Of a DNA stretch of 64,000 nucleotides, positions 170 to 61,788 are shown piece by piece. The stretch is from a virus. Made by a program: the position numbers and the translations under genes. The stretch lies in IMG/VR virus record IMGVR_UViG_3300046514_000542; one strand, 5' to 3'. Below the pieces are notes generated by a model that had not been told where the DNA came from, searched no databases, and saw nothing but the letters and a program-made list of their open reading frames with translations. Each line of letters opens with the position of its first letter. Position 1 is the stretch's first letter.

Positions 170-172
170 TCG

Positions 173-4069: not shown

Positions 4070-4090
4070 AGTAATCTCCTTTGGGTTGTG

Positions 4091-4127
4091 TGTAAAGCAT
4101 ATTGCCATGCCAAGTTGTGGAATGCAA
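4091..4127 (-). promoter_or_regulatory. sigma70-type promoter with GCTTTACA core
   Basis: The minus strand reads TTGCAT (4127-4122), 17-nt spacer, CAATAT (4104-4099), GCTTTACA, then the AAGGAG RBS of the HNH gene. Confidence 0.65.
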
Positions 4128-4140
4128 CAGTGAATGCCTC

Positions 4141-9141: not shown

Positions 9142-9504
9142 ATGGCTCTAATTCCTGGGGTAGCTACGTCTTTAATCTATGGAGTAGCTATGCCTTTAGC
9201 CGCTGGCAAGTCCAAAGAAACTGTTAGTAAGAATATATCTGAATTGCGACATTCTGGACGTCCGCAAGAACAAGCTGTAGCAATAGCTATGAAGACTGCT
9301 GGCAAGTCTAAAAGCGACGATAATCAAAAAATGGGGTTTACGAGCGAAGGGGCCAAGAAGATATCAGAGATGTGCGACGCCCTTAGTGCTCGTATGGATG
9401 CCTTTGAAAAGCGCAAGGCGCAGAGTCAACCGGTAGATGTTAAGCCTAGGACCAAAGATGGGATGCAACCGAGCAACCCGCACCCTAAGGAACCTGGTGG
9501 TTAA
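9142..9504 (+). CDS. hypothetical Lys-rich protein (120 aa)
   Basis: [26 protein letters not shown] resembles DUF6496-type small proteins (memory-based). Confidence 0.5.
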
Positions 9505-48108: not shown

Positions 48109-50121
48109 CTACGCCTTCTTTAATGTTCCCCAATCAGATCCACACTTTATATCTGTCAGCATCGGAATTGTTATGGTCGGTATTGCTTCCTCCATTATCT
48201 TGGCGCACGTAATCATATCCTTCTTGTTTGCAAAACTAAAGCCGAGCTCATCATGAATTTGTAATATTGGTCGATACCCAGCTTGCTCGATGTTTACCAT
48301 AGCTCTCTTAATCTGCCGTGCAGCACTTCCCTGTATGATACGATTAAATGCTTTATGTGTGAATGCCCGTTTCATACGTTCACGATACCATGGATGTAAA
48401 GGATCATTACGTCTGGCTTGCGCTTCTTTTTCATCACAGGGGTATACCTTGGCATTAGAATTTTTCTCCTTGTAAAAGTCTCTATACGCAGGTTCCCATA
48501 AACTGAAATGATTACGCGCTCCATCAAGCATCTGTATATATCCATTCTCGGCTGCAAACCGGCTGTACCAATTGGATACTTCACGAACGAATGGTAGTTC
48601 TCTATAATACAATTCCATCACCTCTCGTGCTTCTTCTATACCCATACCGGTCATGAGTGCAAACTTAGATACTCCTGCACCATAGCTCGTTGCGAAGTTA
48701 ACATCCTTAGCTCTGGGCCGTGGAAGGCGAGTGATAGTTGCAACATAATTATGAAAATCAGTATCAGGATTGCTGCGATATTGATCAGCAGCACGTTTGG
48801 CTCCTGTACAATTTTGTAATTCAGCATGGTATACAATGAGTCGATATTCTTGTTGCCGGTAATCGATACTGCCCCATTGTTCACCATCTTCAGGTATAAA
48901 ACAAGATCGAACCAATGGTGCGTACTCATCATCCCGGCTGGGCATCTGCTGCAAGGGTGGATCACTGTAGCTAAAACGATGGGAGCGAGCTCCCCCCGTT
49001 TCGCTACGAAACTGGTTGATGGATGGATGTACACGCCCATTGTGGGCATATTTAATGATGAATTTCTCTAGAAATTTATCAGCTATATCGTATGAATGTT
49101 TGATCTTATGGGCGGTGCGTGGAAACCAATGTTGATGGTTAGCCATGAAAATCTTATCAAAACTGGCTTGTCCATCCCCATAATGTTCTGTTGGCGCTGT
49201 TCTTGGGTACTGCAAGCCCAGGTTGTCAAACTGTGCTTGCATCCACCGGTTAGATCTTATCTCTTTTATTGATGCTCCTCGTTGCTTGAGGGACCTACTA
49301 AGTGTTGCACAGTCTTCTTCACATTGCTTTTTGATTTGAGCAGCGAGCCGGTGTGCTTTTGCTGTGTCAACCCGGATACCACGCTGCTTCATCTTTAATG
49401 TGATTGGCATAAGGTCACGTTCAACTTGGTATGCAATATCTAATCCTTCTTTCGTGATAAGAGGTCGTAATTTCGCTGCCAGTTTCAGCGTGCTGACCGC
49501 ATCTTGCTCAGCGTATGGCCCGACAAATTCGGCCCCTAGTTCATGTAAATATTGCTTGACCTTATTATCAGGTATACCTCGATCTTTACATGATTCACGC
49601 AGCAGTGTTTCATCTTTACCGGTGATGCCTTGCCAGAGGCACAAATTATCCAAACTAAATGAAGACAGGTTTTCATCTATCATGGATGCCATGGCCATGG
49701 TGTCATCCACCTTGGCCGGTGGGGCTACTCCAAATACAGCTCCCAACCATCCGCAGTCGTAGGCAAAGTTGTGGAAGATGAATCTGGTTTGACTCTGTAA
49801 AAAACAAGCTTTGAGCCATCTTCGTATAACATCGTGATCGAAGTAATTTTTCCTGTCGTGTCTAATGGGGATATAAGTTGCTTGATCTCGCCAAGCAATA
49901 GAGATTCCGGATATAAAGCCAGGGTTCGGACTTTCTTTTTTTCCAGCATACTTGTAGAACCCCGGTCCGTTGCCTTCGGAGAGCGAGGCGTCGCACGTCT
50001 CTGTGTCAATTGCCACCTCAGTTTCTTGAGATAAGTCAGGTAAAGCAGTTGGAAGAGACCAACTGCTTTGTACCGCGAACAGGTTACCTTGGTCTAGGCT
50101 TGCTTTTGCTGTGCGTGTCAT
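48109..50121 (-). CDS. family A DNA polymerase with 3'-5' exonuclease domain
   Basis: Exo I VAIDTETC, motif A DYRQQEYRL, motif B RAKDVNFATSYGAG, motif C LQIHDELGF. Confidence 0.9.
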   Translation of the reverse strand: MTRTAKASLDQGNLFAVQSSWSLPTALPDLSQETEVAIDTETCDASLSEGNGPGFYKYAGKKESPNPGFISGISIAWRDQATYIPIRHDRKNYFDHDVIRRWLKACFLQSQTRFIFHNFAYDCGWLGAVFGVAPPAKVDDTMAMASMIDENLSSFSLDNLCLWQGITGKDETLLRESCKDRGIPDNKVKQYLHELGAEFVGPYAEQDAVSTLKLAAKLRPLITKEGLDIAYQVERDLMPITLKMKQRGIRVDTAKAHRLAAQIKKQCEEDCATLSRSLKQRGASIKEIRSNRWMQAQFDNLGLQYPRTAPTEHYGDGQASFDKIFMANHQHWFPRTAHKIKHSYDIADKFLEKFIIKYAHNGRVHPSINQFRSETGGARSHRFSYSDPPLQQMPSRDDEYAPLVRSCFIPEDGEQWGSIDYRQQEYRLIVYHAELQNCTGAKRAADQYRSNPDTDFHNYVATITRLPRPRAKDVNFATSYGAGVSKFALMTGMGIEEAREVMELYYRELPFVREVSNWYSRFAAENGYIQMLDGARNHFSLWEPAYRDFYKEKNSNAKVYPCDEKEAQARRNDPLHPWYRERMKRAFTHKAFNRIIQGSAARQIKRAMVNIEQAGYRPILQIHDELGFSFANKKDMITCAKIMEEAIPTITIPMLTDIKCGSDWGTLKKA

Positions 50122-50525
50122 TTGAGGCTCTTTTTAAATTCGTCAACTTGCTCCTTGTTACCAACCATCCAATCAGGGGGACGAGGTATATCTATATTTA
50201 TAGGTCTCCATATATGAAGACAGTTTTTTGCTCTACCACCCAGCAACGTTCCATCTATGTATTCAGCTTTAGGAACATGGAGTTGAAATGCTGTTTCATT
50301 TTTATTAAAGAATAAGTTCTTTATTTGTTCCATCTCTTCCCAAGTAGGAGTTCTGTGGTGATGAGATACACTTACATGGTCCCACCCATAACCTGATGTT
50401 GCAATGATAACTAAATTTCGAAATAGAAATACTCCGTAATCAGAGTCACCAACGGCACCATATATTCGAAGCTCATTAACAAGGCTTCTTATATGATCAA
50501 GCTCTTTCAAGTTCCTCATCATCAT
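50118..50525 (-). CDS. hypothetical protein (135 aa)
   Basis: Overlaps the polymerase start by 4 nt. WDHVSVSHHHRTPTWEEMEQIK is a conserved-looking core. Confidence 0.55.
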   Translation of the reverse strand: MMMRNLKELDHIRSLVNELRIYGAVGDSDYGVFLFRNLVIIATSGYGWDHVSVSHHHRTPTWEEMEQIKNLFFNKNETAFQLHVPKAEYIDGTLLGGRAKNCLHIWRPINIDIPRPPDWMVGNKEQVDEFKKSLK

Positions 50526-50706
50526 CCTCCAACCTGAGCCATCCAGTTTTACTCTCTAATATACCCTCACCAGTTTTGAGCCTCGCATAAATCCGCTCAC
50601 CACATTCGGAGCAATAGTTCGGTAACCGGGGGTTGACATAGCAGAGTAGAGAGTGGCAGCACGGTGTTTCGATAAGACGGAATGGAACCTTTGTTAGACT
50701 GCCCAT
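50497..50706 (-). CDS. zinc-ribbon protein
   Basis: ATG 50706 (MGSLTKV...). CCHSLLC...CSECG. Confidence 0.5.
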   Translation of the reverse strand: MGSLTKVPFRLIETPCCHSLLCYVNPRLPNYCSECGERIYARLKTGEGILESKTGWLRLEDDDEELERA

Positions 50707-50827
50707 GGCAGTGTTGCCCCCTGGTTTTTGATGGCCCGCCACGCCTGCCAAATGGCCCGCCTGTACGTTCGGCTGGGGGTGGCGCTACCCCTGTAGCACC
50801 CCCGGCTAGCGCCCGCCAGCGCCCACC

Positions 50828-51154
50828 CTACAGCGTTTGAAGAAACTGTTTGGATCCAACAACGATCGCGATGTTACCGACCAGCACATCCGCATATGCT
50901 GCGAATGCTGCCTTGCCGCCACACATTGCCCAAAGAACTTGAGCAGGTTGGTTTACCGGCATATGCTTCAGCTTGCCTTCTTCATTACAGAATGCAATAC
51001 ACGGGCTCATTTCATAGGTGTTAAAATACGGTACTACTTCAATAGACCCACCCACGATTTCTTGCAGAGCTTCGAGTGTTGGTGTTTTCTTTATTGCTTT
51101 CTTTTTGATTTCGCCAGTCGGGTGTACGGCAATAAGCCAACGTTCATCAGACAC
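50828..51154 (-). CDS. DUF3846-like protein
   Basis: GTG 51154 with an AAGGAG RBS. LEALQEIVGGSIEVV...CNEEGKL pattern (memory-based). Confidence 0.5.
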   Translation of the reverse strand: MSDERWLIAVHPTGEIKKKAIKKTPTLEALQEIVGGSIEVVPYFNTYEMSPCIAFCNEEGKLKHMPVNQPAQVLWAMCGGKAAFAAYADVLVGNIAIVVGSKQFLQTL

Positions 51155-51174
51155 AGTATGCTCCTTTGTTTAGC

Positions 51175-51210
51175 TGTAAAGCATTTTACCATAAATTAGT
51201 TATGATGCAA
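51175..51210 (-). promoter_or_regulatory. sigma70-type promoter with GCTTTACA core
   Basis: The minus strand reads TTGCAT (51210-51205), 16-nt spacer, TAAAAT (51188-51183), GCTTTACAG, then the AAGGAG RBS. Confidence 0.65.
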
Positions 51211-51673
51211 ACTTTGAATGTTCTCCACCATCTTCTGGCGTGCCGGGGACATTAAGCTCTGCGTATAGTTTAGATACTAGCTCTTTATCGCGTGCCTCAC
51301 CCAATATACGTGTCAGCCATTTGCGGGCATTTAATAAGTCTTCAAGATTTATGAATGTGCACATCTTATAAATGAACATTTGGTCATACTCATTTAACTG
51401 GTTAGCATCAGCAAATCGTAAAACCTCTTGTCTTATTGCAGATGGTTCCAGTAACCGTTTCGATATCTTATCAAACTGAATAACCGTTATCAGTTTGTCG
51501 AGGTAGTGTCGCGCCTTTTGTAGATCTTGTATTCCATTTTTCTTGCGATATCGTGACACGTACTTGGTTGCGTTCCCTGCAAAATAATCCATGCCAACCC
51601 GGGCAACAAGGTCCCAGTGCTGATACTGAGTTTGATAATGTGTCCCACCAAATTGTTCTTTATTCGGATCCAT
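51200..51673 (-). CDS. DUF3310-like protein
   Basis: HYQTQYQHWD...GNATKYVSRYRKKNGIQDLQKARHYLDKL pattern (memory-based). Confidence 0.5.
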   Translation of the reverse strand: MDPNKEQFGGTHYQTQYQHWDLVARVGMDYFAGNATKYVSRYRKKNGIQDLQKARHYLDKLITVIQFDKISKRLLEPSAIRQEVLRFADANQLNEYDQMFIYKMCTFINLEDLLNARKWLTRILGEARDKELVSKLYAELNVPGTPEDGGEHSKFAS

Positions 51674-52277
51674 GTTTTTCTTCCCAACCGTTCGTATGCC
51701 ACCAATCGGATAATGGTGGCATTAGTGTAAAGCGTTGCTGCGCAAAAAACAATCGTATACGTATAATCACATAGCGTACGACCGGTGGGCTCGGCTCTTG
51801 ATCGTACAGAGCTCTTAGACACCGGTCAGCTACGATGAAGCCATGGCTGTTGCCAAGGTTCATTTCATCCATACCCCATTCAGCCATCTCAATAAGCTCG
51901 ATTTGTTTAACAAGAATCTTATCCTCTTCTGTCAACACAACCGGTTGATAAGCATTCCAATATTGGAGTTGTCGGTAATATGATTTTTGTTCTATTAGAT
52001 CCACTTGTTCTTTTAACATTGGGTTATCTTTCTTAACAGGATAAGGAAGATCCCCAGTGCTAATTTCACCAATATCGTGAAAGATCATGTGGTAAACCAC
52101 ATGCTCATCTGGTTGATGAGTAATAGAGAAATATATTCGTAATAGATTCCAACTATGTGATGCAACCGTTTGTGGTTGGATATGAGGCCAGACATGATAT
52201 CGTTTAAGTTGTCCAGCGAGCCGAGTATCAAGATAGACAGGATCTGCACTAGTCATTTCGATCTCCTCACTATCCAT
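51660..52277 (-). CDS. HD-domain phosphohydrolase (YfbR-type 5'-deoxynucleotidase-like)
   Basis: RYHVWP...QTVASHSWNL...IFHDIGEISTGDLPYPVK matches the HD/YfbR layout. Confidence 0.7.
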   Translation of the reverse strand: MDSEEIEMTSADPVYLDTRLAGQLKRYHVWPHIQPQTVASHSWNLLRIYFSITHQPDEHVVYHMIFHDIGEISTGDLPYPVKKDNPMLKEQVDLIEQKSYYRQLQYWNAYQPVVLTEEDKILVKQIELIEMAEWGMDEMNLGNSHGFIVADRCLRALYDQEPSPPVVRYVIIRIRLFFAQQRFTLMPPLSDWWHTNGWEEKHGSE

Positions 52278-53260
52278 GCAATACCAGCTTCTTGCCAGTC
52301 ATCCGCCTTTACCATACCAAGAGCATCGTATGCACCCTGGAGATATTTATCTTTAAACCTTTGATGTGCCAAGGCCATAGGGACAACGGTGTCACGCAAA
52401 AATGAATTGACTATGGTACCATTATATCCGTCTGAACCAGACTGTATGATTTCGATACAATCTATAGTCTCCTTAATATCGTCATCTATATTAGCTTCAT
52501 CATCTATTAACGGTTGTGTTTTTCCATATGGTGTATTATCAGATAATTGTTCTGATAAGAGATCTTCATTAGATATTCTAGATCCAAGCATATTGATATG
52601 GTGTTCATACAAGTGCAGGTTAGTGGTGACTTGCCAATACTCACCAAGACCTACCCCGATCTTACCGGCAAGGTACTCCTGTAATATTGGAAAATGAACT
52701 GCGTTAGCTCCACAGCAGCCCCAGATAACATCGTTGGACCGGTTGAACACTGTCATGTTGAGCCTTCCGTTAAGTATACGGAAGACTGCAACGAGGTTGC
52801 AGGGCTTAGCCGAATTGACGACAAGGTCACACCTACCGGCTCCCCACATCTGCAACACGGCTTGTCTCGTAGATGCGTCCTTACGCATCTGCGTAACAAT
52901 TTCATCTAACTGGTCTATATCTTCTAAACCATATCGCCATCTATATCCGTAGGCATCCATAATAGTGCCATCTTCATTACCATATGTCTTACTGAAATCT
53001 TTGATGTATGGATCCAAAAACTTACCATCATCCCTACCGGCTAGCATCCATATAGCTTCCATTAAATGGAAAAATGGGTTGGCATCTCTGACCGGATTTA
53101 ATAGGACATGTTGTTTAGGATACAGATAGTGGATAGTTACTGGACCAGGAGCTACGAAAGCTTTTCCTAGCCGGGTGTATTCTGTTCGTCCTTGAGCAAG
53201 AAGATATTGAACTGCTTTTGGTAAGGCATCTCTGACGTTAGTCGCTGTTATCACAAACAT
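52253..53260 (-). CDS. thymidylate synthase (ThyA) family homologue; TS or dUMP hydroxymethylase
   Basis: ATG 53260 with a GGAGG RBS. It aligns to E. coli ThyA blocks: FHLMEAIWMLAG, YGYRWR, IDQLDEIVTQMRKDASTRQAVLQMW, KPCNLVAVFRILNGRLNMTVFNRSNDVIWGCCGANAVHF, TNLHLYEHH. There is a ~70-aa C-terminal extension. Confidence 0.8.
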   Translation of the reverse strand: MFVITATNVRDALPKAVQYLLAQGRTEYTRLGKAFVAPGPVTIHYLYPKQHVLLNPVRDANPFFHLMEAIWMLAGRDDGKFLDPYIKDFSKTYGNEDGTIMDAYGYRWRYGLEDIDQLDEIVTQMRKDASTRQAVLQMWGAGRCDLVVNSAKPCNLVAVFRILNGRLNMTVFNRSNDVIWGCCGANAVHFPILQEYLAGKIGVGLGEYWQVTTNLHLYEHHINMLGSRISNEDLLSEQLSDNTPYGKTQPLIDDEANIDDDIKETIDCIEIIQSGSDGYNGTIVNSFLRDTVVPMALAHQRFKDKYLQGAYDALGMVKADDWQEAGIAWIVRRSK

Positions 53261-53927
53261 CTTTTCCTCCCACGATGTGCGCACCGCTCAGCCTTACGTC
53301 TAGTGGTGTTCCCCAGTCTATCGGTTGATATGTAGTCTCCTTTGCGATTTTTTCACCTGTTAGCTGATTGAATACATGGCTGATATATGGTTCTTTCATT
53401 GTTTCAACCAGTGTTTCTGCAATAGTCATAAATTCTCCTATAAATTTACTAGGAATCCAATATGCTCCTCTTACTGCGTATTGTGATATACGTTCCTTTT
53501 CTTTAATTAAATTAAAGAAACCTAAAGCATCAACATATGAAAATGCTGGGTTAGAACTTTTACTGACAAGAACTGCTGGACAATGTATCGTTGTAATCGC
53601 CAATAAATCATTAGTGAAATTTAATATGTCAGCATCTAATATCAGAGTATCGTCTAAAGAAATTTTGTTCATCACTTGAAGAGCCGTGTGTGCTGGACCT
53701 TTCGTATGTACCATCACTATCGCATTATTCATTTCTCCTATCCATTTAGGCGGAACACCGTACAATGTTTGTCCTCCCCAAAACTTAGGTGGAAGTGTCC
53801 AGAACACATGCTCCCACATAGGACAAGTATACCCGCGCCATTCAATATTGAGGAACGGCTTTGGTGTGGTGTATCCTTCTTCCTTAAAGCGGCGGCTTTC
53901 ACCAGCAGCTAAAATGATTGCACGCAT
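53238..53927 (-). CDS. nucleotidyltransferase (sugar/alcohol-phosphate NTP-transferase type)
   Basis: ATG 53927 with a GGAG RBS. The N-terminal MRAIILAAGESRRF is the LAAGxGxR signature. Confidence 0.65.
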   Translation of the reverse strand: MRAIILAAGESRRFKEEGYTTPKPFLNIEWRGYTCPMWEHVFWTLPPKFWGGQTLYGVPPKWIGEMNNAIVMVHTKGPAHTALQVMNKISLDDTLILDADILNFTNDLLAITTIHCPAVLVSKSSNPAFSYVDALGFFNLIKEKERISQYAVRGAYWIPSKFIGEFMTIAETLVETMKEPYISHVFNQLTGEKIAKETTYQPIDWGTPLDVRLSGAHIVGGKDVCDNSD

Positions 53928-54712
53928 GATTCCAACTCCCCGGCTATCCGTATGGCCCACTTCCCCGCGCTAGTATTAGTCGTATCGCGCAGAGCGATAC
54001 GCTTTAGACCCACCATACACCAGAACACTGCTCGTTTCAAAACTTCGTAGTCTTGTGCAAACTTTGGCCACAAGTATGGCTTATAGTCTACTCCACGCAA
54101 TATTACTTCCCAACCCAACATAGACTGTAGCATCTTGGCATGGTCTATCGCACGAATGCTAGGTCGCATTAACCGGTGTGGTGGAATTGGGTCCGCAATG
54201 CGGATATATCCTTTTCTATTAGTCAGTGTATTATCAAGCGTTGCATCACCATGGATAAGACAGATGTCATCGTGCAATGCCCAGTCTGGCACAGTAACTC
54301 CAATTGTTGATAGGAGTTCTTGTCGCCATGATTCATCACCTATTTGTTTTGTGAATGGTGCATCTACTAGCGACCTATTCCATACATGGTCTGTCAACAC
54401 TTTTTCCATTATACAAAGTGTGCGTTGATTATGCCATTGTGGAGTGAGATATTCCATTACATAGCTTGTATTGTTTAATGCGAATATCCGTGGGCATACA
54501 TTTTCGCCCAGATGCATCATAAACACAGCTTGCTCATATGCAAAGTCTGCAGTATCAGTTTCTTTATGCACGGCCAGTGTCAATTTAGAATGAGTAAAAC
54601 CGGCCATATCTACTTCATGACCATAAAGACATTCCGGTACATCAACTGGCGGGTATTCTTTTGAAATATACGATAGTATACGTAATGCTGATAAGAGATC
54701 ACACTGATACAC
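53909..54712 (-). CDS. APH/choline-kinase-fold kinase
   Basis: Catalytic loop ICLIHGDATLDNTL (HGDxxxxN), then IRIADP. Confidence 0.65.
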   Translation of the reverse strand: MYQCDLLSALRILSYISKEYPPVDVPECLYGHEVDMAGFTHSKLTLAVHKETDTADFAYEQAVFMMHLGENVCPRIFALNNTSYVMEYLTPQWHNQRTLCIMEKVLTDHVWNRSLVDAPFTKQIGDESWRQELLSTIGVTVPDWALHDDICLIHGDATLDNTLTNRKGYIRIADPIPPHRLMRPSIRAIDHAKMLQSMLGWEVILRGVDYKPYLWPKFAQDYEVLKRAVFWCMVGLKRIALRDTTNTSAGKWAIRIAGELESCVQSF

Positions 54713-55493
54713 GGGACTTCACTCCATCTTCGAGTGCCTTTTGCCATTGGCAGATCACTTCAACTCGAGGAACTGAAGCTGTGTACTTCTTTTCAGTCGT
54801 AGACACATAGCCGGGATGTAATTCTGCTAGCTTCTTTGCATCAGCGTTAGAACGTTCAATAGTGCGTTCATCACTGGCACCACCAGAAGCATCAAACTCA
54901 CGTTGGTCATTCACAGTATTGTGCCACACGGCATCAGGATAACCTTTACGAAGTAACTGCAATGTGACATCCATATCTTCTCTCGTCTCAATTCGCCCTA
55001 ATTCACACTCTTTCAACACTACCGGTAAATAATAGCCGAGCGAATATTGCATTCTACCGGGTGATTTCCATCCTGCTTCTTTCAAAGTGTTGTTACCCTG
55101 ACGTGGCCCAAAGCCCACGTGAGGGAACTCTGGCCCTAGTTTATCTTCAAGCCTTTGTATTTCATCTGCAAGCTGAACACCAGCAATTTCCTTCAAGTGC
55201 CAATCGGCATCACTCTTTCTGGTTGCAAACCTAAGATCATCGTCAAGCATGAGAATCTTATCATAACCCCGCTCAAGCCATTCAAAACAAATCCACTTGC
55301 GCTTTTGTGCTATGGTCCAAGTAGGGTCTGGCTGTGCCACCACTTCAATATCATCACGCAATGACGATAAACTGAATAATTCCTTTGGAGGACAAACAAG
55401 TGTCGTACGTTTGCGTGTATCCCCCGGTAAAAGCTGAAGCGTAAGCTGTTTAGCTGTACGCCCTCGTGTAGGAATTATGATACGCATTGCCAT
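54699..55493 (-). CDS. GT-A-like transferase (DDD motif), paralogue 1
   Basis: ATG 55493 with a GGGAGG RBS. IIIPTRGR, KILMLDDDLRF, EDMDVTLQLLRKG, SGGASDER. Confidence 0.5.
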   Translation of the reverse strand: MAMRIIIPTRGRTAKQLTLQLLPGDTRKRTTLVCPPKELFSLSSLRDDIEVVAQPDPTWTIAQKRKWICFEWLERGYDKILMLDDDLRFATRKSDADWHLKEIAGVQLADEIQRLEDKLGPEFPHVGFGPRQGNNTLKEAGWKSPGRMQYSLGYYLPVVLKECELGRIETREDMDVTLQLLRKGYPDAVWHNTVNDQREFDASGGASDERTIERSNADAKKLAELHPGYVSTTEKKYTASVPRVEVICQWQKALEDGVKSRVSV

Positions 55494-55547
55494 TGAAGCC
55501 TCCCCATATGTTATGCTAACACTAGATAAGACTGACCGCAAGTTGAA

Positions 55548-56291
55548 CTATACTATACCCCCAAGTCTTTTTGCTGCTCTCCAATTATAACGTACATCCT
55601 TTTCATCTTTAGCTGTTACGATTGTCGGCCATAGGGCAAGTATCTTCGCTTGTTCTTGCTGATACCTTTCAAAACAACGCCAATCGCTACATCCACCGTT
55701 GGCATTATGAGTATCAGTCTTAGACCACTCAGTGCTAACAGCGGTCTTAATTCCACGTGTAAGAAACTGGAGGTGCATGTCATGCTCTTCATGCCCAAAG
55801 TCTAATCTGAATTTAGGCCACGGGCACGGCATGGTATCCCGGTTAAAGCCGAGCACTTGATTGAACCGCTGGCATTCAGCATAGCCGCGCGGCTTAGTCT
55901 GGCTCATGAACTTATCAACTAACCCGACATATGGATATTGTTCCATTAGTACCCATAGATCAGTAATCATTGTGAGTGTATCTTCTAATGTCGCTTTGGT
56001 GAAATTACCTTCATCATTCCGTTTATAAAAAGTTAAATCATCATCCAACATAATCAACTTACCGGTTTTTGGCATACTCTGCAACATAAACTCGCGCTTC
56101 AATCCAATACCGGTTCCCCCAAATGGAATAACATCTAGTTCTATAGACAAGGCTGCACGATATGTATCGTATTGATCAAATGGCACAACAATACTGATGT
56201 ATTGCCATAGGTCATGAGACAAATTACTGATAGTCTTTTGGTTCCAGGGCCTGGATCTAGACGGTATCATTATGTGCAGATCATCATACAT
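55548..56291 (-). CDS. GT-A-like transferase (DDD motif), paralogue 2
   Basis: IMIPSRSR, KLIMLDDDLTF, EEHDMHLQFLTRG and NGGCSDWR align block-for-block with ORF 54699..55493. Confidence 0.5.
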   Translation of the reverse strand: MYDDLHIMIPSRSRPWNQKTISNLSHDLWQYISIVVPFDQYDTYRAALSIELDVIPFGGTGIGLKREFMLQSMPKTGKLIMLDDDLTFYKRNDEGNFTKATLEDTLTMITDLWVLMEQYPYVGLVDKFMSQTKPRGYAECQRFNQVLGFNRDTMPCPWPKFRLDFGHEEHDMHLQFLTRGIKTAVSTEWSKTDTHNANGGCSDWRCFERYQQEQAKILALWPTIVTAKDEKDVRYNWRAAKRLGGIV

Positions 56292-57174
56292 GTCTGAACA
56301 CCTGTCTTGGACGCCCGACCCCGGTAGCTACCTTAGTGAACTTGCTGAACTCACAAAGACAATTTTGGAGATCTTGGTTGTGCAGTCTATTAATTTCTAA
56401 TTCTTCAAGTCTTGGATTCACAATAGCACTTAACCGGTTGAGTTCCATTAACCATTCGCCCTTGGCCCATGACTGATCCATTGACCTACCAAGTACGATA
56501 TTCAACCCGCGCATACTTCCAGGCCCAGGCGCAGCCCATGTCCACCAGTCGGGTACAGTGGGCATACATGGTAGATACTTCAAATCGGCCACAATCTGGG
56601 CTCTCATAAACGAACCTAACCCCTCCCCGTTTATCCATTCATCTATTTCAGCTAATAGCGGTGGATTTTTGCGCCATACTTCCCATTGTGTGAGCCATGG
56701 TTTCTTGCACCATTCATGAAAATATGCGAGCACCCCTTGTCCTTTAGAATAACCAGGCATTCCATTAATAATATACGCTCCAGTTACATGAGGAGTTGGT
56801 AATTTATCTAAACAACAGATTAATATGGGCCAATCACGATCTATGAGATATTTTTCAAATACAGTCAGATTACTCAACATATCTGGCTGACTAAAGAATG
56901 CATCACAAGTTTCTGGTCGATTAAACCAACGATACAACATAGTGGCTGGAAGTACAGCAGATTCTTCGCCATAATGATCTCGGATAGTCTTTTGGTAATG
57001 TTTTGATACCTTATCATTTTCCCTATTTATATTAGTGAACCGGTATTGTTGGAGTATGGTCTCACTTGTCCATGGCCATGGATCTCCACGTTCACGCCGC
57101 ACACGTATGGCTTCACGCTCATAAATAAAAGCGACAAACCGTTCAATTGGATCTTTTATATCAACCAAGGTCAT
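56284..57174 (-). CDS. aGPT-Pplase-like DNA base hypermodification protein (tentative)
   Basis: The N-terminus ERFVAFIYEREAIRVRRERGDPWPWTSETILQQYRFTNINRENDKVS matches my recollection of the PWT-D-IL--YRF-N--RE-D motif of the alpha-glutamyl/putrescinyl thymine pyrophosphorylase family. Confidence 0.4.
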   Translation of the reverse strand: MTLVDIKDPIERFVAFIYEREAIRVRRERGDPWPWTSETILQQYRFTNINRENDKVSKHYQKTIRDHYGEESAVLPATMLYRWFNRPETCDAFFSQPDMLSNLTVFEKYLIDRDWPILICCLDKLPTPHVTGAYIINGMPGYSKGQGVLAYFHEWCKKPWLTQWEVWRKNPPLLAEIDEWINGEGLGSFMRAQIVADLKYLPCMPTVPDWWTWAAPGPGSMRGLNIVLGRSMDQSWAKGEWLMELNRLSAIVNPRLEELEINRLHNQDLQNCLCEFSKFTKVATGVGRPRQVFRHV

Positions 57175-57563
57175 GAAGACACCTGTTTCTTATACCACGG
57201 CACAAATTTTAGCAATGTTTGCGGGTCAAACATAGGGTTATGCCAGTCTCCATCAAACCTCATGCACCGGTCATCGATAGTTAAGAATGCATGAGGCTTT
57301 TCGTTAGCATAGTACAGTCGTGCTGCGATTGTACTATGGGGGCCTGCATGTTTTCTAATATAGGTTTGCATCGCAACCCTACCTTGATATGTTTTTGATC
57401 GACTGGAATACACATGTATTTCAAAATATATGAGTGCAGCTTCTAACCAATCAAATATCCCCGGTACCGGTGGGTCTGATATTACTTCATCCCCTTTCCA
57501 ACCAGAAGAGTATGAATGTATGCACCCATCGAAATCGAGGCAGAGTATGGGCTTTTTAGTCAT
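57171..57563 (-). CDS. HAD-superfamily phosphatase
   Basis: Motif I LCLDFDGCIH (DxDx), then SSRS, EKP and TIDDR. Confidence 0.6.
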   Translation of the reverse strand: MTKKPILCLDFDGCIHSYSSGWKGDEVISDPPVPGIFDWLEAALIYFEIHVYSSRSKTYQGRVAMQTYIRKHAGPHSTIAARLYYANEKPHAFLTIDDRCMRFDGDWHNPMFDPQTLLKFVPWYKKQVSS

Positions 57564-59110
57564 TCAAACAATCCTCCAAAGTGGTATTTCTTTTCTGGAG
57601 CTATAACGATAAGATCTTGGTACGTTCGTGTAATCCCCGTGTAGAACACCCTCGTTTCTTCTTCTATATTACTCGCAAACTGCTCCGATGGCTTTGCCGT
57701 ATCAGACAGCAGTACGACCGTGTTGGCCTGCCCTCCCTTAACGCGGTGTATAGTAGAGATATGAATCTTTGGCTTGTCACCAAGATGAAATCCATTGGCC
57801 AATACCTTTTTGAAATAGGTTATCTCTTCTGGTGTAATTTGTACAAACAACTCTTCCCACGGTCCCTCTGCCAATAGCCCATAGTTATCCTTTAATTGTT
57901 GCAGATTAAAATGTGGAGGATCTTTTTGATCGGAAATACTATTGAGCCGGGTTTTGTAGCCATATGCAACTCCAGGCTTTTTACCATGTCCTTCCGACGG
58001 AAGTAGATTGTAAATTGAGACGATCTGGGGCGATGGTATTGACCTACCGTCTTGCAATTCACGCCAAGCTGTGATTGCTTTGGCAATCGATGGTTTGATG
58101 CTGTTAGCATCGAAGTAACGATATAATAAGCCAAAATGTCGGCAATACGGTACGAACTTCTTCCTTAACATTTTCACTGTACGCCCTAAAAGCATAACGC
58201 TCTCTTGGGCGTTCAGATCTCTAGGGCTTAGCTCTGCTATTCCATTAACGATACTATAACTGCCTTCAGCATCCCTTGGCAACCAGACCTTTTCACGTCT
58301 GTTGATGACCTTGCGAATAATCTTATTCGCAAGATCATGCACTTTGCCTGGGACACGGTAGCTCTGCTTCAAAACTTGTGCTGCTCCTGGCATACTGATA
58401 AATTTCTCTGATGCTCCTGCCCAAGTGAAAATAGTCTGGTCATCGTCACCAGCAATGTAGATACGCTTAGCAGATCTGCATAAATGTTCCACCATACACC
58501 ATTGTAATTCACTAAGATCTTGAGCCTCATCCACCATTACAACTTCTAACCGGGGAGGGTCTTCTTGTTTAATAAAATGTTCCAACATATCTGTGAAATC
58601 AAGAAGCTTATTTTTCTCTTTATATTCCCGGTAATCTTTTATCACCTGCCACGCATGTTGAACATTTGGAAACATGTAATCATATTGATGAAAGACAATC
58701 TCAACCGGTGTTAGTGTTATCCTAGATAGATTTTCTAGGAATAGCACTAAATCATCTCCATAGAAACTGGTATATATCCCATCATCAAATGATTGACCTC
58801 CGTGGATATCGTGCCCATACGTGGAGCCAAATTCACGTATTTTATTCCCAACCATTACTTGATCAGTAGTCAGGCCCAAGTGTCTGAATGCCGCACTGTG
58901 AAGTGTGTTGAAATATCTGAATGCAGAGCGAGGCAGATTAAATCGCATACTAGCACGCGAAATAGCCTCCTCCACTCCACGTCGGGTAAATGTGAAAAAC
59001 CCAATACGGTCAGGTGGAATACCGCGCTCCATTTCTAGGAGCACGGTGTCTAGTAACGTGGTGGTCTTCCCCGTTCCCGGGGGACCGAGGAAGATGGTGG
59101 GGTCAAGCAT
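57560..59110 (-). CDS. UvrD/Rep-type SF1 helicase
   Basis: Walker A GPPGTGKTT, Walker B VMVDEAQDL, C-terminal IHRVKGGQANTVVL. Confidence 0.8.
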   Translation of the reverse strand: MLDPTIFLGPPGTGKTTTLLDTVLLEMERGIPPDRIGFFTFTRRGVEEAISRASMRFNLPRSAFRYFNTLHSAAFRHLGLTTDQVMVGNKIREFGSTYGHDIHGGQSFDDGIYTSFYGDDLVLFLENLSRITLTPVEIVFHQYDYMFPNVQHAWQVIKDYREYKEKNKLLDFTDMLEHFIKQEDPPRLEVVMVDEAQDLSELQWCMVEHLCRSAKRIYIAGDDDQTIFTWAGASEKFISMPGAAQVLKQSYRVPGKVHDLANKIIRKVINRREKVWLPRDAEGSYSIVNGIAELSPRDLNAQESVMLLGRTVKMLRKKFVPYCRHFGLLYRYFDANSIKPSIAKAITAWRELQDGRSIPSPQIVSIYNLLPSEGHGKKPGVAYGYKTRLNSISDQKDPPHFNLQQLKDNYGLLAEGPWEELFVQITPEEITYFKKVLANGFHLGDKPKIHISTIHRVKGGQANTVVLLSDTAKPSEQFASNIEEETRVFYTGITRTYQDLIVIAPEKKYHFGGLFE

Positions 59111-59984
59111 GCTTTTCTTCTAGCTCGAGGAACCCTTTATTCGTACCATACTTAACATCTTTAATGGTTTTATTCCCACAGAAAGCATTCCAGGCAAAGA
59201 TGCATCCTTGGTAAATCTGGGCAGGTGGAAGGGTTGTCTTAAATTTCTTTTCCAGCACCAGCACCAAGAACTCATCCAACGCTGTGGCTGGGTCACCGTC
59301 GATTTCTACACCACCTTTGCACACATCTTTCCAAAAATCTTGTGCGTTCATTTGGTCTTTTTGGAAAGTAGCGAACATAGCAGCTACAACCGGTATGTTC
59401 TTACATTCTCTCGTTTTACTCGACAGAATGTGGCCATTTCCGATCCAAAGAAAGAACGGATGCAAGTCAGTATCCTGCAACATAGCGTATGCTTGATCAC
59501 TAGTAGTCAGCTTTTTAATGCCTTCCACTGTTCGCTTATACCAAACAATTCCTTCAACTGCAAGCTTAGCGATAGGCTTGGGAACACTCTTTAGATCAGG
59601 TTGCAAGCCTTGATATGCTCCAGAAACATCGAGCGATGTGCGGCTCGATTGCCTACCATCTAGCTGCCTAAACAAGATTGCCAGATCGTCCATGGTTTCA
59701 CATCGATACCTGTCAATGTGCACCCTCAAATCGGATGGGAATTTACCACCCAGTTTCTTTAGCATCGCGCAACTGTGCTGCCCGTTAACTCGAAACACGT
59801 CAGCACCTACTTCTGCACAAGCAAAGTTGAACGGAACAAGAAGCCCCGCATTTGCCCTTTCAAGCAAATACTCTACCCGGCCCTCACTCAGATCTCGCTC
59901 AGTTGGAGACGGTGTCATCGTCTCAAACCTTACTGCAATCTCTGGAGTAAGGGTCCCGGATGTTGATTCAAGCAACTTAAACAT
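59103..59984 (-). CDS. ParB/Srx-fold (DGQHR-like) protein
   Basis: FRVNGQHSCAML resembles the (D)GQHR motif of the ParB-like/DndB-like nuclease superfamily (tentative). Confidence 0.4.
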   Translation of the reverse strand: MFKLLESTSGTLTPEIAVRFETMTPSPTERDLSEGRVEYLLERANAGLLVPFNFACAEVGADVFRVNGQHSCAMLKKLGGKFPSDLRVHIDRYRCETMDDLAILFRQLDGRQSSRTSLDVSGAYQGLQPDLKSVPKPIAKLAVEGIVWYKRTVEGIKKLTTSDQAYAMLQDTDLHPFFLWIGNGHILSSKTRECKNIPVVAAMFATFQKDQMNAQDFWKDVCKGGVEIDGDPATALDEFLVLVLEKKFKTTLPPAQIYQGCIFAWNAFCGNKTIKDVKYGTNKGFLELEEKHA

Positions 59985-60028
59985 AGGATTACTCCCTGGT
60001 AGGGAACATAGAAACGTGTTCCCAGGCG

Positions 60029-60745
60029 CTACTCTTTCTGATCATTGTAAAATTTCCTGAGTCTACCGGCTTCTATGGTAATCGACGGTATGGATATCGT
60101 CGCCATATTTTTCAGCCCTAGATCCTCAAGTTTACGAATGATAGAAATGAGTTCCTTGCGAGGTATTTTTACATACTCCGCGCAAACCTTTGGTTCTTTG
60201 GTCTTGGTTAGTTCCTTTTGAGGTTTTGGTTCTTCTTGAACCTGAACATGGTTTTGTTCATTGTGAAAGGCTTGAACATTCGCCTTATTAAAGGTTATTT
60301 GTTCTTCTCTCACAAGAACAGCAAGTTTTTTATGTGCTGGTCTGATTAATCTTACAGCTCTCACCATAGTGCCATGGCTAACATTAGCATATGTTGCAAG
60401 TCTGTTACGAAGTTGTATATTCTTTTGACAAAGTTCAGCTATTATCATTGCACGTCGCCCAACATCAAGATTTCGTTGCTTAATATTATTTTTGAAAATT
60501 AATTCTATAATATCGAACTCATCCAGTGCAGAATCAAGTTCTATGACATACGGCACCATATTAATTTCCAAACAAGCTCGCATTCGACTACGGCCATCAA
60601 TAATCATATTATCACGAATCATAATAGGATGGTTTATATTATTCTCCTTGATATTAGCCAACAATTTATAAAATTCCATATCTTTCATCAAAGGAAATAT
60701 CTCTAGTGCCGGGTGAATTGTGTATTTGCCTATCTGATTAGACAT
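60029..60745 (-). CDS. ParB N-terminal domain protein with HTH
   Basis: IHPALEIFPLM...HPIMIRDNMIIDGRSRMRAC is the ParB-like nuclease domain pattern. An HTH-like region follows (NVSHGTMVRAVRLI). Confidence 0.65.
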   Translation of the reverse strand: MSNQIGKYTIHPALEIFPLMKDMEFYKLLANIKENNINHPIMIRDNMIIDGRSRMRACLEINMVPYVIELDSALDEFDIIELIFKNNIKQRNLDVGRRAMIIAELCQKNIQLRNRLATYANVSHGTMVRAVRLIRPAHKKLAVLVREEQITFNKANVQAFHNEQNHVQVQEEPKPQKELTKTKEPKVCAEYVKIPRKELISIIRKLEDLGLKNMATISIPSITIEAGRLRKFYNDQKE

Positions 60746-60774
60746 GATACATCATCATTAGTTTGTGCATATGC

Positions 60775-60788
60775 CGTAAAGCATAACG
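60775..60788 (-). promoter_or_regulatory. GCTTTAC-core motif copy (CGTTATGCTTTACG on the minus strand)
   Basis: Upstream of the ParB-like gene. There is no good -35 at canonical spacing. Confidence 0.4.
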
Positions 60789-60842
60789 CACATTTTTATG
60801 GATTACAAGTTCGTAAAGGTTACCTGCCCGCTGTGCTCGGGG

Positions 60843-61619
60843 TTAAAACGGTATCTCGTCATTTCCACTGTCACCAGCATGGGCCGTGGGTGATTCTGCC
60901 CTTTTCTCTCCTTTTTGAACAGCTTGATAAAGGGTCTTGGCGGCTTGATATTCTGGCACCGTAACTGGACCAAGGTCTTGAAACTTGAGTCCAAACCATT
61001 TTCCCACTGCGTTGCTCGCAGGAACCGTTGTCAAACGGTACTTGCGAGCAAAACTTGGCATGACGTTACCGGTTTTAGGGTGCAGGAACTGATGAAATAA
61101 CATATTCCAGCTTCGCGCAAAGGTATGTTTCGTACCAGTGCATGGGAGTACATACGGTTGACCATCCACCAGTAGATAGAACTCACGGGTATCTTGAACA
61201 ATGTTCCCACTACCACCCCGCACGAGACTCTGTCGTTCCCGGCCATCATCACCACGAACAGTGCGCTGAGTCATGTCTTCTGGCGGAGAGTCATGTCGTG
61301 CCACAAATCCACCCCGGTTAGGAAGCCACTCAATCCATGTGCGTACCATCTCAACCGGGATGGCTATAATACCTTCTTCCCCATTACGAATGGGGATGAT
61401 GGCATTGCGCAACCAGAAGTCTCCTGGGTTCGCACCTTCAACATAACTGTCACCTCGTTTTTCAACAGCCGGTGAACCGGTTTGTAGCACATATATGAGT
61501 GGGAGTAACTGGTCTTCTGGTTTAAAGCTGACACCTGCCCCAGAGTCTTGTTCAGCCATATCCAACAATTCTTGAGATGTCAGTTCTTGTGACAATGCTG
61601 TCTGTAATTCATTAGCCAT
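60843..61619 (-). CDS. SSB-like protein with acidic C-terminal tip
   Basis: ATG 61619 with a GGAG RBS. The C-terminus ...GDSGNDEIPF mimics the D-D-D-I-P-F tip of bacterial SSB. The body is not a classic OB-SSB by eye. Confidence 0.45.
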   Translation of the reverse strand: MANELQTALSQELTSQELLDMAEQDSGAGVSFKPEDQLLPLIYVLQTGSPAVEKRGDSYVEGANPGDFWLRNAIIPIRNGEEGIIAIPVEMVRTWIEWLPNRGGFVARHDSPPEDMTQRTVRGDDGRERQSLVRGGSGNIVQDTREFYLLVDGQPYVLPCTGTKHTFARSWNMLFHQFLHPKTGNVMPSFARKYRLTTVPASNAVGKWFGLKFQDLGPVTVPEYQAAKTLYQAVQKGEKRAESPTAHAGDSGNDEIPF

Positions 61620-61653
61620 GGTGACACTCCTATCTGTGTTTAGTACCATATAC

Positions 61654-61667
61654 CGTAAAGCATTTGA
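61654..61667 (-). promoter_or_regulatory. GCTTTAC-core motif copy (TCAAATGCTTTACG on the minus strand)
   Basis: 35 nt upstream of ATG 61619. Confidence 0.4.
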
Positions 61668-61788
61668 GCGCAAGGGGCCGTGCAAACGGCCCGTACAGCG
61701 GTGTTACCAGGGGGCGGTACCACCCTAGGCGCCCCCTAGTCAAAACGCACGGGCGGCCCGTTTGCGGGGCTCCACGAGGCCCGCAAAT

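Follow-up and report, generated by a model that had tools for sequence, protein, structure and literature searches.

The subject of this study is a block of nine genes on the minus strand (positions 51200–57563) of a 64,000-nucleotide stretch of viral DNA, from here on called the window, taken from the IMG/VR virus record IMGVR_UViG_3300046514_000542. Judged from family membership, fold and gene order, the block is considered, with moderate confidence, to be a cassette encoding a three-module pathway that would place glycosylated 5-hydroxymethyl-2'-deoxyuridine (5-hmdU) in the phage genome, the identity of the sugar being left unspecified. The predicted product is a mono- or di-glycosylated 5-hmdU resembling base J. 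In a preliminary description of the same DNA, a cassette for 5-hmdU-based hypermodification had been placed here, together with a glycosyl-type adduct and a phage-made nucleoside diphosphate (NDP) donor; the strand and both boundaries were recovered exactly, and this core reading, itself a prediction, survived the tests run. All nine fold or family assignments were reproduced with Pfam, PHROG, motifs and Foldseek, and the flanking UvrD-like helicase and DNA polymerase were confirmed with Pfam, the polymerase being of family A. Ten genes had been announced for the interval; nine were listed and nine were found, the tenth being the adjoining helicase gene.

The following course is proposed for the pathway. 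The homologue of thymidylate synthase ThyA (ThyS) would turn 2'-deoxyuridine monophosphate (dUMP) into 5-hmdUMP, an HD-domain nucleotidase would deplete thymidine nucleotides, the phosphorylation of 5-hmdUMP may fall to a DUF3310 protein, and the family-A DNA polymerase would put in 5-hmdU instead of T. A kinase of the APH fold would phosphorylate a host sugar phosphate at the anomeric carbon, a HAD phosphatase would strip the other phosphate to give the sugar-1-phosphate, and a nucleotidyltransferase (NTase) would make the NDP-sugar. The first of two TAGT glycosyltransferases (TAGT1) would then move the sugar onto the 5-hydroxymethyl oxygen of 5-hmdU in DNA, and the second (TAGT2) would add another sugar or cover other sequence contexts. 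HMUDK_hel, a protein of aGPT-Pplase clade 1, would act on 5-hmdU in DNA and might present the base or process residues left unglycosylated. The expected outcome would be base J-like DNA shielded from restriction and related nucleases. The pre-replicative module was derived from homology and synteny with M6-type phages, and the donor module from fold, gene fusion in relatives and a recurrent neighbourhood.

The ThyA homologue matched Pfam Thymidylat_synt (1.3e-22, 80.7 bits) and phrog_5131 (3e-89) and was 38–40% identical over 97% of its length to M6 gp58, its PaMx11 equivalent and PhiJL001 gp24; both for this protein and for HMUDK_hel, the best cultured relatives were found in PhiJL001 and in the M6, PaMx11 and Ab18-like Pseudomonas phages. 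It was aligned to E. coli ThyA, the reference being checked against the residue list in PMC13326640. Cys146, Arg166, Ser167, Asp169, Asn177 and Tyr94 (E. coli numbering) are kept, and the exchanges H147N, Q165N and C168N together with the loss of Trp80 (W80S) are common to M6 gp58. The protein carries the residue pattern of dUMP hydroxymethylases of the M6 gp58/SPO1 gp29 type (Asn177 plus Cys146, Arg166, Ser167 and Asp169) and departs from that of canonical thymidylate synthase ThyA (L143A, H147N, W80S); it also lies far under every NCBIfam thymidylate synthase equivalog cut-off (best scores 72.8 against 174.6 and 67.5 against 327). Asn177 specifies uracil, dCMP and CMP hydroxymethylases having Asp at this position (PMC13326640), and in an alignment with MilA an Asp was found at the site where the window protein has Asn. 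In M6 and PaMx11, T is swapped for 5-hmdU before replication and then hypermodified (PMC8989533). From these residues and relatives, the ThyA homologue is proposed to be a dUMP hydroxymethylase. Position 143 is Asp in M6, PhiJL001 and RSL1 and in three metagenomic contigs (L025, L026, L028); as a separate observation, the ThyA homologues of the window clade alone have lost the Asp143 kept by other ThyS genes linked to HMUDK_hel or TAGT.

The HD protein matched Pfam YfbR-like (5.4e-11, 42.9 bits against a cut-off of 25.9) and also HD_3, and scored 30.3 against the NCBIfam 5'-deoxynucleotidase equivalog (cut-off 122). It is syntenic with M6 gp59 and PhiJL001 gp25 and is proposed to deplete dTMP or dTTP. 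The DUF3310 protein (Pfam DUF3310 at 1.7e-10, 41.2 bits against a cut-off of 24) has its domain in common with the T7 gp1.7 nucleotide kinase (81.5 bits), the resemblance to gp1.7 beyond the domain being marginal (BLASTP E = 0.034 over 70 residues); it is syntenic with M6 gp61 and PhiJL001 gp26 and is possibly a deoxynucleoside monophosphate (dNMP) kinase for 5-hmdUMP. The polymerase is 28% identical to M6 gp62 and PhiJL001 gp28, and the order ThyS–HD–DUF3310–PolA is common to M6 (gp58, 59, 61, 62) and PhiJL001 (gp24, 25, 26, 28). The ThyA homologue, the HD protein and the DUF3310 protein thus probably form an M6-like pre-replicative module supplying 5-hmdUTP. The family-A polymerase of the phage would have to accept 5-hmdUTP.

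For the kinase, no Pfam (the APH model included), PHROG or NCBIfam match was obtained and a profile search of the PDB found nothing, so that fold comparison alone worked; direct sequence searches of the PDB with the kinase, the NTase, TAGT1 and HMUDK_hel likewise gave nothing significant. In an alignment with 19 metagenomic homologues, Lys50 (strand beta-3, LAVHK), the motif HGD(154–156)xxxDN161 (HGDPTLDN) and the metal-binding Asp174 were invariant, a set that constitutes the Brenner signature of APH/choline-kinase enzymes. When the AlphaFold2 model (pLDDT 90.2) was compared with the PDB by Foldseek, FN3K, APH(2''), macrolide phosphotransferases and choline kinases were matched (7e-4 to 1e-2, probability 1.0, TM 0.4–0.55), as were CcrZ, LicA and MTR kinase; the matches were exclusively protein-kinase-like (PKL) small-molecule kinases. 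The beta-3 Lys, HGDxxxxN motif, metal Asp and bilobal fold of an APH/ChoK-type PKL kinase are all present. Among viral models (BFVD), a stand-alone "aminoglycoside phosphotransferase" came first, followed by NTase–kinase fusions, namely the Tenacibaculum PTm1 "guanylyltransferase" (521 amino acids, aa), an Indivirus "nucleotidyl transferase domain" protein and a Myoviridae "NTP transferase"; a 563-aa neighbour was taken as an NTase–kinase fusion on length alone. RB69 ORF052c was also among these neighbours (1.4e-5), and the kinase profile (A1), run against 25 comparator proteins, weakly picked RB69 gp52 (17.5 bits) and RSL1 ORF236. On this modelled fold, the enzyme is proposed to be an anomeric sugar-phosphate kinase.

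The NTase carries the N-terminal signature ILAAGESRRF...PKPF, invariant in its alignment. Its profile matched PDB entry 4evw (9e-7), ST0452 (1e-6) and GlmU, and its AlphaFold2 model (pLDDT 94.8) matched ST0452, RmlA, GlmU and GalU (1e-11 to 1e-9, TM 0.70–0.78), signature and alpha/beta fold both being those of sugar-1-phosphate nucleotidyltransferases; the score with Pfam NTP_transf_3 (19.7) was under the gathering score of 27. It belongs to phrog_3980 (4.6e-19), a family common to the NTases RSL1 ORF235 and RB69 gp53, and the NTase profile (A2) gave 14 bits on the latter. The model and the profile suggest an NDP-sugar pyrophosphorylase, which is the function proposed. In the HAD protein, motifs I–IV (DFDGC, YSSR, EKP, IDDR) could be aligned with RB69 gp51 and six orthologues. 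It matched phrog_1238 at 2e-10, RB69 gp51 falling in the same family at 1.9e-42; no Pfam match was obtained at gathering score, and the pairwise BLAST comparison with gp51 was not significant (E = 0.28).

In PMC13326640, AfhE (HY126; the counterpart of RB69 gp52:53) is described as a bifunctional arabinose-5-phosphate 1-kinase and UDP-arabinose pyrophosphorylase, and AfhF (RB69 gp51) as a HAD phosphatase which, with AfhE, makes the UDP-arabinose donor for arabinosyl-5-hydroxycytosine. By analogy, the window HAD is proposed to remove the non-anomeric phosphate of a sugar bisphosphate in the manner of AfhF. The window has the gene content of such a module, an NTase, a PKL kinase and a HAD being encoded together with DNA glycosyltransferases and a ThyA homologue for neighbours; no SIS-type isomerase was found in it. 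Kinase, HAD and NTase together look like a split AfhE/AfhF-like donor module. The HAD, which had been left unexplained in the preliminary description, fits donor synthesis too.

The TAGT and aGPT-Pplase families were reportedly defined by Iyer et al. in 2013. Both transferases of the cassette passed the Pfam TAGT threshold (PF20691, cut-off 27.5 bits): TAGT1 with 60.8 bits (2.3e-16, profile positions 1–205) and TAGT2 with 45.0 bits (1.5e-11, profile positions 2–204). Each has an LDDDL motif (at residue 83 in TAGT2) that supplies the DXD of the family, and both matched phrog_842 (1e-35 and 1e-25, respectively), which is labelled "beta-glucosyl-HMC-alpha-glucosyltransferase". Distant cassettes have a single TAGT, placed beside the kinase; TAGT1 was 38–47% identical to it, and its identity to PhiJL001 gp22 was 33%. 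TAGT2 was only 23–28% identical to any other TAGT examined. The two paralogues are about 26% identical to each other and each has its own orthologues, those of TAGT2 occurring in every related contig, from which it follows that the duplication is old and that both copies have been kept. TAGT1 is read as the core transferase, proximal to the base and orthologous to the lone TAGT of distant cassettes; TAGT2 is probably a later addition specific to the window clade, which by analogy would add a second sugar.

HMUDK_hel matched Pfam PF18723 (E = 2.6e-30, 106.2 bits against a cut-off of 25) over profile positions 5–275 of 281, which places it in that family, and the same model was matched by M6 gp55, PhiJL001 gp19, RSL1 ORF231 and LuckyBarnes gp38. 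Identity to the proteins of M6-type phages and PhiJL001 was 28–32%, and a Cys274–Glu275 dyad (LCEFSK) was invariant across eight diverse members. In clade-2 aGPT-Pplases, which act on phosphorylated 5-hmdU (5-PmdU), a Cys–Glu dyad is essential by mutagenesis, and M6 gp55, the closest characterised relative of HMUDK_hel, is dispensable for glycine transfer in vitro (PMC8989533). HMUDK_hel appears from its family and its dyad to be a DNA-glycosylase-like helical protein that is probably catalytic.

The window was also searched for enzymes of other hypermodification pathways; about 5–14 kb of the genome lie outside the inspected sequence, and all absences are to be read within that scope. No tblastn match to the P-loop 5-hmdU DNA kinase (PF18748, M6 gp54 type) was found in the window, in which only the UvrD helicase has a Walker A motif, and none of the remaining ORFs matched that Pfam family. 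The amino-acid:DNA transferase (ADDT, PF18724) is likewise missing: tblastn of M6 gp51 against the window gave nothing at E < 0.01, and no ADDT was found among the other window proteins. The 296-aa HMUDK_hel protein matched the HMUDK_hel model only, as M6 gp55 does, and M6 gp51 matched Pfam ADDT. The window contains no tailoring enzymes of the pyridoxal phosphate (PLP), radical-SAM, flavin adenine dinucleotide (FAD) or acetyltransferase kinds and no Nmad5, and the rest of it contains no TET/JBP dioxygenase, DNA methyltransferase, dCMP deaminase or second ThyA/ThyX; the same kinds of enzyme were also missing from the Pfam matches of the genes called in a 9-kb leftward extension taken from a near-identical contig. 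A TET/JBP route to 5-hydroxymethyluracil was rejected, no such gene being present in the window. Because P-loop 5-hmdU DNA kinase, ADDT, TET/JBP and methyltransferase are all lacking, the kinase most likely makes the sugar donor and not phospho-DNA.

By tblastn, at least 12 related phage contigs from metagenomes share the nine-gene order (38–75% amino-acid identity), the same nine genes standing in order in L005, L006, L008/9, L011 and L019–L023. Where these contigs are long enough, the cassette is flanked by the same helicase and polymerase, and the UvrD helicase lies directly upstream in L008, L011, L020 and L022. Close homologues of the kinase and of the NTase number a few dozen each and are all metagenomic. 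Among 50,697 phage records, Megablast found no match to the 6.4-kb block and tblastn found no cultured-phage relative of the kinase or the NTase; pattern scans of 185,579 GTDB species genomes, built on the kinase and NTase alignments, returned no relatives. The GTDB scan therefore gives no clue to the host or to the sugar.

An exhaustive hidden Markov model (HMM) search brought the kinase family to 505 cluster representatives, of which 298 lay at E <= 1e-10; most members are proteins of 170–300 aa that stand alone. The gene neighbourhoods of four distant members, drawn as a random sample and all located in phage contigs, were inspected. Two of the four have the order TAGT–kinase–(137–157-aa open reading frame, ORF)–NTase and a third has TAGT–kinase–NTase, all three with ThyS, HD and PolA alongside; on the fourth contig (2.4 kb), nothing but the kinase and a HAD-like ORF after it can be seen. 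The kinase of the four sampled members adjoins TAGT, HAD or NTase, with ThyS nearby wherever the contig is long enough. The small ORF starts with the HAD motif DxDGT, and several HAD models were matched below threshold; its HAD subfamily is not that of the window HAD, which suggests that the phosphatase role has been kept and the gene filling it replaced. Given about 500 representatives and their recurrent neighbours, the pathway is probably widespread in uncultured phages.

Two of the metagenomic contigs deserve separate mention. L026 (ENA ERZ650287 NODE_33, 80.5 kb) holds a distant cassette with two HMUDK_hel paralogues, a DCD/dUTPase-like gene, DUF6378 and Nmad5 in addition to ThyS, TAGT, kinase and NTase, and is a further combinatorial variant. 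In L025, a 209-aa ORF beside ThyS (149–778, plus strand) scored 22.6 bits with Pyr_excise, a pyrimidine-dimer DNA glycosylase family (cut-off 23), and may be another DNA-base-binding protein recruited to such clusters.

Several points weigh against the proposed pathway, the limited reach of the absences given above being one of them. An acidic residue at position 143 of ThyA-family enzymes has been tentatively correlated with a hydroxymethyl rather than a methyl product (PMC13326640). In the window protein this residue is Ala, and in the orthologues of the window clade (L005, L008, L011, L020, L022) it varies (A/Q/I/T; Ile in two of them) ahead of an invariant Lys144, so that the product could be dTMP or something else. 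The assignment of the DUF3310 protein as a dNMP kinase hangs on one shared domain of 60 residues. The likeness of the kinase to AfhE-type enzymes is remote, as the above profile and Foldseek values and a TM of about 0.5 indicate, and it would suit a kinase that acts on another substrate as well. The cassette contains no sugar isomerase, epimerase or mutase and leaves the substrate unspecified. Finally, HMUDK_hel keeps the dyad that needs phosphorylated 5-hmdU in the AADT clade, and the proposed pathway assigns it no defined reaction.

It is this last point, a dyad left unexplained where no phosphorylated substrate is made, that keeps alive the best of the rival explanations, which is nonetheless regarded as unlikely. 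According to it, the APH-fold kinase takes the place of the P-loop 5-HMUDK as the enzyme that phosphorylates 5-hmdU in DNA; the HMUDK_hel dyad eliminates the phosphate and captures a nucleophile (for example, a hydroxyl group of a sugar or NDP-sugar), and the ether-linked adduct is extended by the TAGTs. The lack of a P-loop kinase in the window, which leaves the activating kinase otherwise missing, speaks for it, and a conserved basic segment of the kinase (DPIPPHRLxRPSIRAIDHGK) could bind the phosphodiester backbone. The preliminary description had likewise read the cluster as a pathway of the SP10/PhiW-14/ViI/M6 type, with the APH-fold kinase as a substitute for the DNA kinase acting together with aGPT-Pplase. 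That framing was not supported, for four reasons: the aGPT-Pplase-like protein belongs to the HMUDK_hel clade (M6 gp55) and not to the ADDT clade (M6 gp51); the nearest viral structural neighbours of the kinase are the NTase–kinase fusions of NDP-sugar pathways, including RB69 ORF052c, the AfhE counterpart; the recurrent unit of distant cassettes is TAGT–kinase–HAD–NTase, the kinase adjoining the NTase in every sampled context or being parted from it by a HAD gene only; and PhiJL001 carries HMUDK_hel along with ThyS and TAGT but has no Walker A motif of the kinase type in its first 50 kb. Taken together, these reasons put the kinase with the NTase and the HAD in donor synthesis. No kinase gene adjoins the LuckyBarnes cluster either, and from these two arrangements HMUDK_hel appears to be independent of a kinase. 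The kinase orthologues, moreover, are uniformly acidic (isoelectric point, pI, 5.2–6.5), unlike M6 gp54 (pI 8.7). The NTase and HAD orthologues are likewise on the acidic side, as small-molecule enzymes are, whereas TAGT2 and HMUDK_hel range from neutral to basic; such comparisons of net charge are weak evidence, as M6 gp51, a genuine DNA enzyme, is also acidic.

A related version, considered rather improbable, makes the APH-fold kinase a non-P-loop DNA nucleobase kinase acting on 5-hmdU, with HMUDK_hel using its Cys–Glu dyad and exocyclic-methylene chemistry to attach an activated sugar or polyol of the phage's own making to the C5-methylene group by a non-anomeric ether or a phosphodiester, and with the TAGTs extending the adduct. 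If true, it would establish a class of thymidine hypermodification for which no precedent has been described and a first function for aGPT-Pplase clade 1.

Quite improbable, too, is the explanation in which the ThyA homologue is a divergent thymidylate synthase giving dTMP and the kinase, NTase, HAD and glycosyltransferase (GT) genes serve to glycosylate virion proteins or the host envelope. Its supports are the non-acidic position 143 of the ThyS clade, including Ile in two orthologues, and the existence of phage glycosyltransferases with non-DNA targets. According to Pyle et al. (bioRxiv 2023.12.21.572611), no base-modification gene lies near the GT in about 65% of the phage contigs that bear one, which points the same way. 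However, both GTs of the cassette are TAGTs, whose characterised member glucosylates DNA-linked glucosyl-5-hydroxymethylcytosine in T2/T6; the TAGTs lie between HMUDK_hel and ThyS within a replication module, an arrangement that recurs in four unrelated phage lineages; the exchanges common to ThyS and M6 gp58, together with the scores below the thymidylate synthase cut-offs, contradict a canonical enzyme; and a YfbR-type nucleotidase beside a true thymidylate synthase would counteract it.

A glycosylated 5-hydroxymethylcytosine (5-hmC) or 5-hydroxycytosine of the T-even or RB69 type can be set aside as very improbable: although the donor module is AfhE/AfhF-like and TAGT relatives have so far been characterised only in cytosine-modifying phages (PMC13326640), Asn177 and Asp169 are the opposite of the signatures of dCMP hydroxymethylase and of 5-hydroxy-dCMP synthase (RB69 gp48 type: N177D, L143E and the diagnostic D169N; PMC13326640), identity to RB69 gp48 is only 22% over a partial stretch, and cytosine methyltransferase and TET are absent from the window. 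Both of these enzyme identities were ruled out for the ThyA homologue by N177, A143 and D169. A phospho-alcohol adduct of the type derived from cytidine diphosphate (CDP)-choline or CDP-glycerol is disfavoured, as the transferases are GT-A TAGTs with DXD and not LicD/TagF-type and the structures nearest to the NTase are hexose-1-phosphate NTases.

The positions of the cassette genes and of the two flanking genes are collated in Table 1. Nine consecutive ORFs fill the block exactly. Gene starts were picked from alignments of homologues and Shine–Dalgarno-like motifs; with these starts, eight of the nine junctions from UvrD/HAD through HD/DUF3310 overlap, the stop of the helicase gene reaching into the first cassette gene, and TAGT2/TAGT1 is the exception. 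The TAGT1 ORF extends to a TTG at 55541, and a GGGGAGG Shine–Dalgarno motif precedes the ATG at 55493. For the NTase, the JGI gene call gives the identical product. In a promoter and terminator scan, no convincing minus-strand terminator was found inside the block, and promoter-like matches there were at or below the expectation from shuffled sequence. Three small ORFs (DUF3846, an 84-aa ORF and DUF7694) lie between the DUF3310 gene and the polymerase. NCBIfam supplied no name for six of the nine cassette proteins.

Table 1. Genes of the cassette and its two flanks in order of transcription (positions in the window; nt, nucleotides).
Gene	Position	Strand	Product length and basis of assignment	Junction with the preceding gene
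UvrD-like helicase, upstream flank	57560..59110	-	Pfam UvrD-helicase 2.1e-26, UvrD_C	
HAD-superfamily phosphatase	57171..57563	-	130 aa; HAD motifs, phrog_1238	overlap 4 nt
HMUDK_hel / aGPT-Pplase clade 1 protein	56284..57174	-	296 aa; Pfam PF18723	overlap 4 nt
TAGT glycosyltransferase, paralogue 2 (TAGT2)	55548..56291	-	247 aa; Pfam PF20691	overlap 8 nt
TAGT glycosyltransferase, paralogue 1 (TAGT1)	54699..55493	-	264 aa from ATG 55493; Pfam PF20691	gap 54 nt (6 nt with TTG start at 55541)
Protein-kinase-like (APH/ChoK/FN3K-type) small kinase	53909..54712	-	267 aa; motifs and Foldseek	overlap 14 nt
Sugar-1-phosphate nucleotidyltransferase (NTase), predicted	53238..53927	-	229 aa from ATG 53927; profile and fold	overlap 19 nt
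ThyA homologue (ThyS)	52253..53260	-	335 aa from ATG 53260; Pfam Thymidylat_synt	overlap 23 nt
YfbR-like HD-domain protein	51660..52256	-	198 aa from ATG 52256; Pfam YfbR-like	overlap 4 nt
DUF3310 protein	51200..51673	-	157 aa; Pfam DUF3310	overlap 14 nt
Family-A DNA polymerase, downstream flank	48109..50121	-	Pfam DNA_pol_A 6.3e-41, DNA_pol_A_exo1	

Some further observations were made elsewhere in the window. Between the UvrD helicase and a Pam3_Gp34 homologue lie two genes with weak PHROG and no Pfam matches, one encoding a 293-aa protein with an FRVNGQHS motif (59103–59984, minus strand) and the other a 238-aa protein with a ParB/Srx-like N-terminus, IIDGRSRMRA (60029–60745, minus strand). 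No homologue of either was found by tblastn in the related contigs L019–L023, in which no more than a few hundred bases separate Pam3_Gp34 from UvrD, and the pair (59103–60745) looks like a strain-specific insertion of possible ParB-like genes. ParB homologues have recently been tied to T-hypermodification clusters of phages (PMC13229309). A 369-aa ORF with a NUDIX domain (9504–10613, plus strand) occupies an unusual place between the portal and capsid genes of the head-morphogenesis block and could be a virion-associated or nucleotide-pool enzyme. An HNH endonuclease gene (3410–4108, minus strand) stands back-to-back with that of the large terminase (4102–5445, plus strand), a pairing common in cos-type packaging. 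The portal protein (6834–8375, plus strand) is 45–48% identical to those of phages of about 45 kb that infect Shewanella, Klebsiella, Pantoea and Yersinia, some of them named myoviruses, and the replication/modification module (48109–61685, minus strand) is syntenic with the siphoviruses PhiJL001 and M6. By these comparisons the genome is a mosaic, and they hint at a Gram-negative host.

If the prediction holds, the cassette would provide the first characterised phage case in which a sugar is joined directly, by an O-link, to 5-hydroxymethyluracil: a viral equivalent of base J, reached by a pre-replicative route. A glycosylated hydroxymethyluracil route has been predicted before; in the literature, neither a chemically characterised phage with a sugar in this linkage nor a paper describing the pathway was found. 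The 5-hmdU platform of M6-type phages would be merged with the NDP-sugar/glycosyltransferase toolkit of cytosine-modifying phages, which would extend the modular view of hypermodification gene pools. Many restriction enzymes would fail to cut DNA with glycosylated T, which could also have an effect on CRISPR and glycosylase defences, and new DNA glycosyltransferases and a compact three-enzyme route to NDP-sugars would be useful reagents. The question of what aGPT-Pplase clade 1 does is sharpened, as the clade recurs without any DNA kinase. The parts will be familiar to the specialist; the combination, its metagenomic breadth and the cultured proxies make a concrete lead, everything beyond fold, family and synteny being inferred from sequence.

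With the M6, PaMx11, ViI, PhiW-14 and SP10 systems (PMC5889632, PMC8989533), the cassette has in common the ThyA homologue, YfbR-like HD protein, DUF3310 protein and family-A polymerase in the same order, the gp55-type HMUDK_hel gene and, as predicted, a post-replicative modification of 5-hmdU. It differs in having no P-loop 5-hmdU DNA kinase, ADDT, PLP, radical-SAM, FAD or acetyltransferase tailoring enzymes and in having two TAGTs and the kinase/HAD/NTase set, and the predicted adduct is a sugar instead of an amino-acid derivative.

The RB69, DLP3 and HY126 phages (PMC13326640) resemble the predicted pathway in three respects: the hydroxyl acceptor arises at the nucleotide level through a ThyA-family enzyme, the NDP-sugar comes from an NTase, a PKL kinase and a HAD, and several glycosyltransferases build the glycan on DNA. 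Phrog_1238 is shared by the window HAD and RB69 gp51, and phrog_3980 by the NTase and gp53, and the kinase is a structural neighbour of ORF052c. In contrast, the base appears to be uracil-type in the window (N177, D169) and is cytosine-type in these phages (N177D, D169N); kinase and NTase are separate genes without an arabinose-5-phosphate isomerase, whereas theirs are one bifunctional protein; the window has TAGTs in place of their Aat-type transferases, and HMUDK_hel in addition; and the similarity between the donor enzymes is remote.

With the TAGTs of T2/T6 and of metaviromes (PMC13216743; PMC13390438), the cassette has the family in common, both of its transferases passing the Pfam TAGT threshold and having the DXD motif, and the two window paralogues suggest a stepwise glycan as in the gentiobiosyl-hmC of T6. 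The acceptors of the T2/T6 and metavirome enzymes, however, are glucosyl-hmC or TET-made 5-hmC, and the likely acceptor in the window is 5-hydroxymethyluracil supplied via ThyS. In the survey statistics of Pyle et al. (bioRxiv 2023.12.21.572611), phage GT-A enzymes have ThyS, "secondary GTs" and "APH phosphotransferase" nearby, no pathway or product being given.

A core of ThyS, HMUDK_hel and TAGT is shared with three cultured phages, PhiJL001 (gp19–gp26), the Ralstonia phage RSL1 (ORF228–238) and the Brevibacterium phage LuckyBarnes (gp38–41), for which no published DNA chemistry was found and which make the prediction directly testable. PhiJL001 has ThyS, HMUDK_hel, TAGT and Nmad5, and LuckyBarnes the order ThyS–TAGT–TAGT–HMUDK_hel; in these two, unlike the window, the kinase/NTase donor module is not beside the cluster. 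The cluster of RSL1 (L012, NC_010811, 159995–174732) contains three TAGTs, a 477-aa APH-domain protein, an NTase (28% identical to that of the window), HMUDK_hel and ThyS (34% identical over the full length); it differs from the cassette by an added adenosine phosphosulfate (APS) kinase and a sulfotransferase (Sulfotransfer_2). The latter pair, as an observation in its own right, suggests a sulfated glycan on the DNA of this cultured jumbo phage.

Base J, lastly, is alike in its predicted core chemistry, a sugar O-linked to 5-hydroxymethyluracil in DNA. There, T is oxidised after replication by JBP1/2 and then glucosylated by JGT at a small fraction of T residues; in the window, 5-hydroxymethyluracil would be made before replication by the ThyA homologue and the phage would supply its own sugar donor, and the two sets of enzymes are unrelated.

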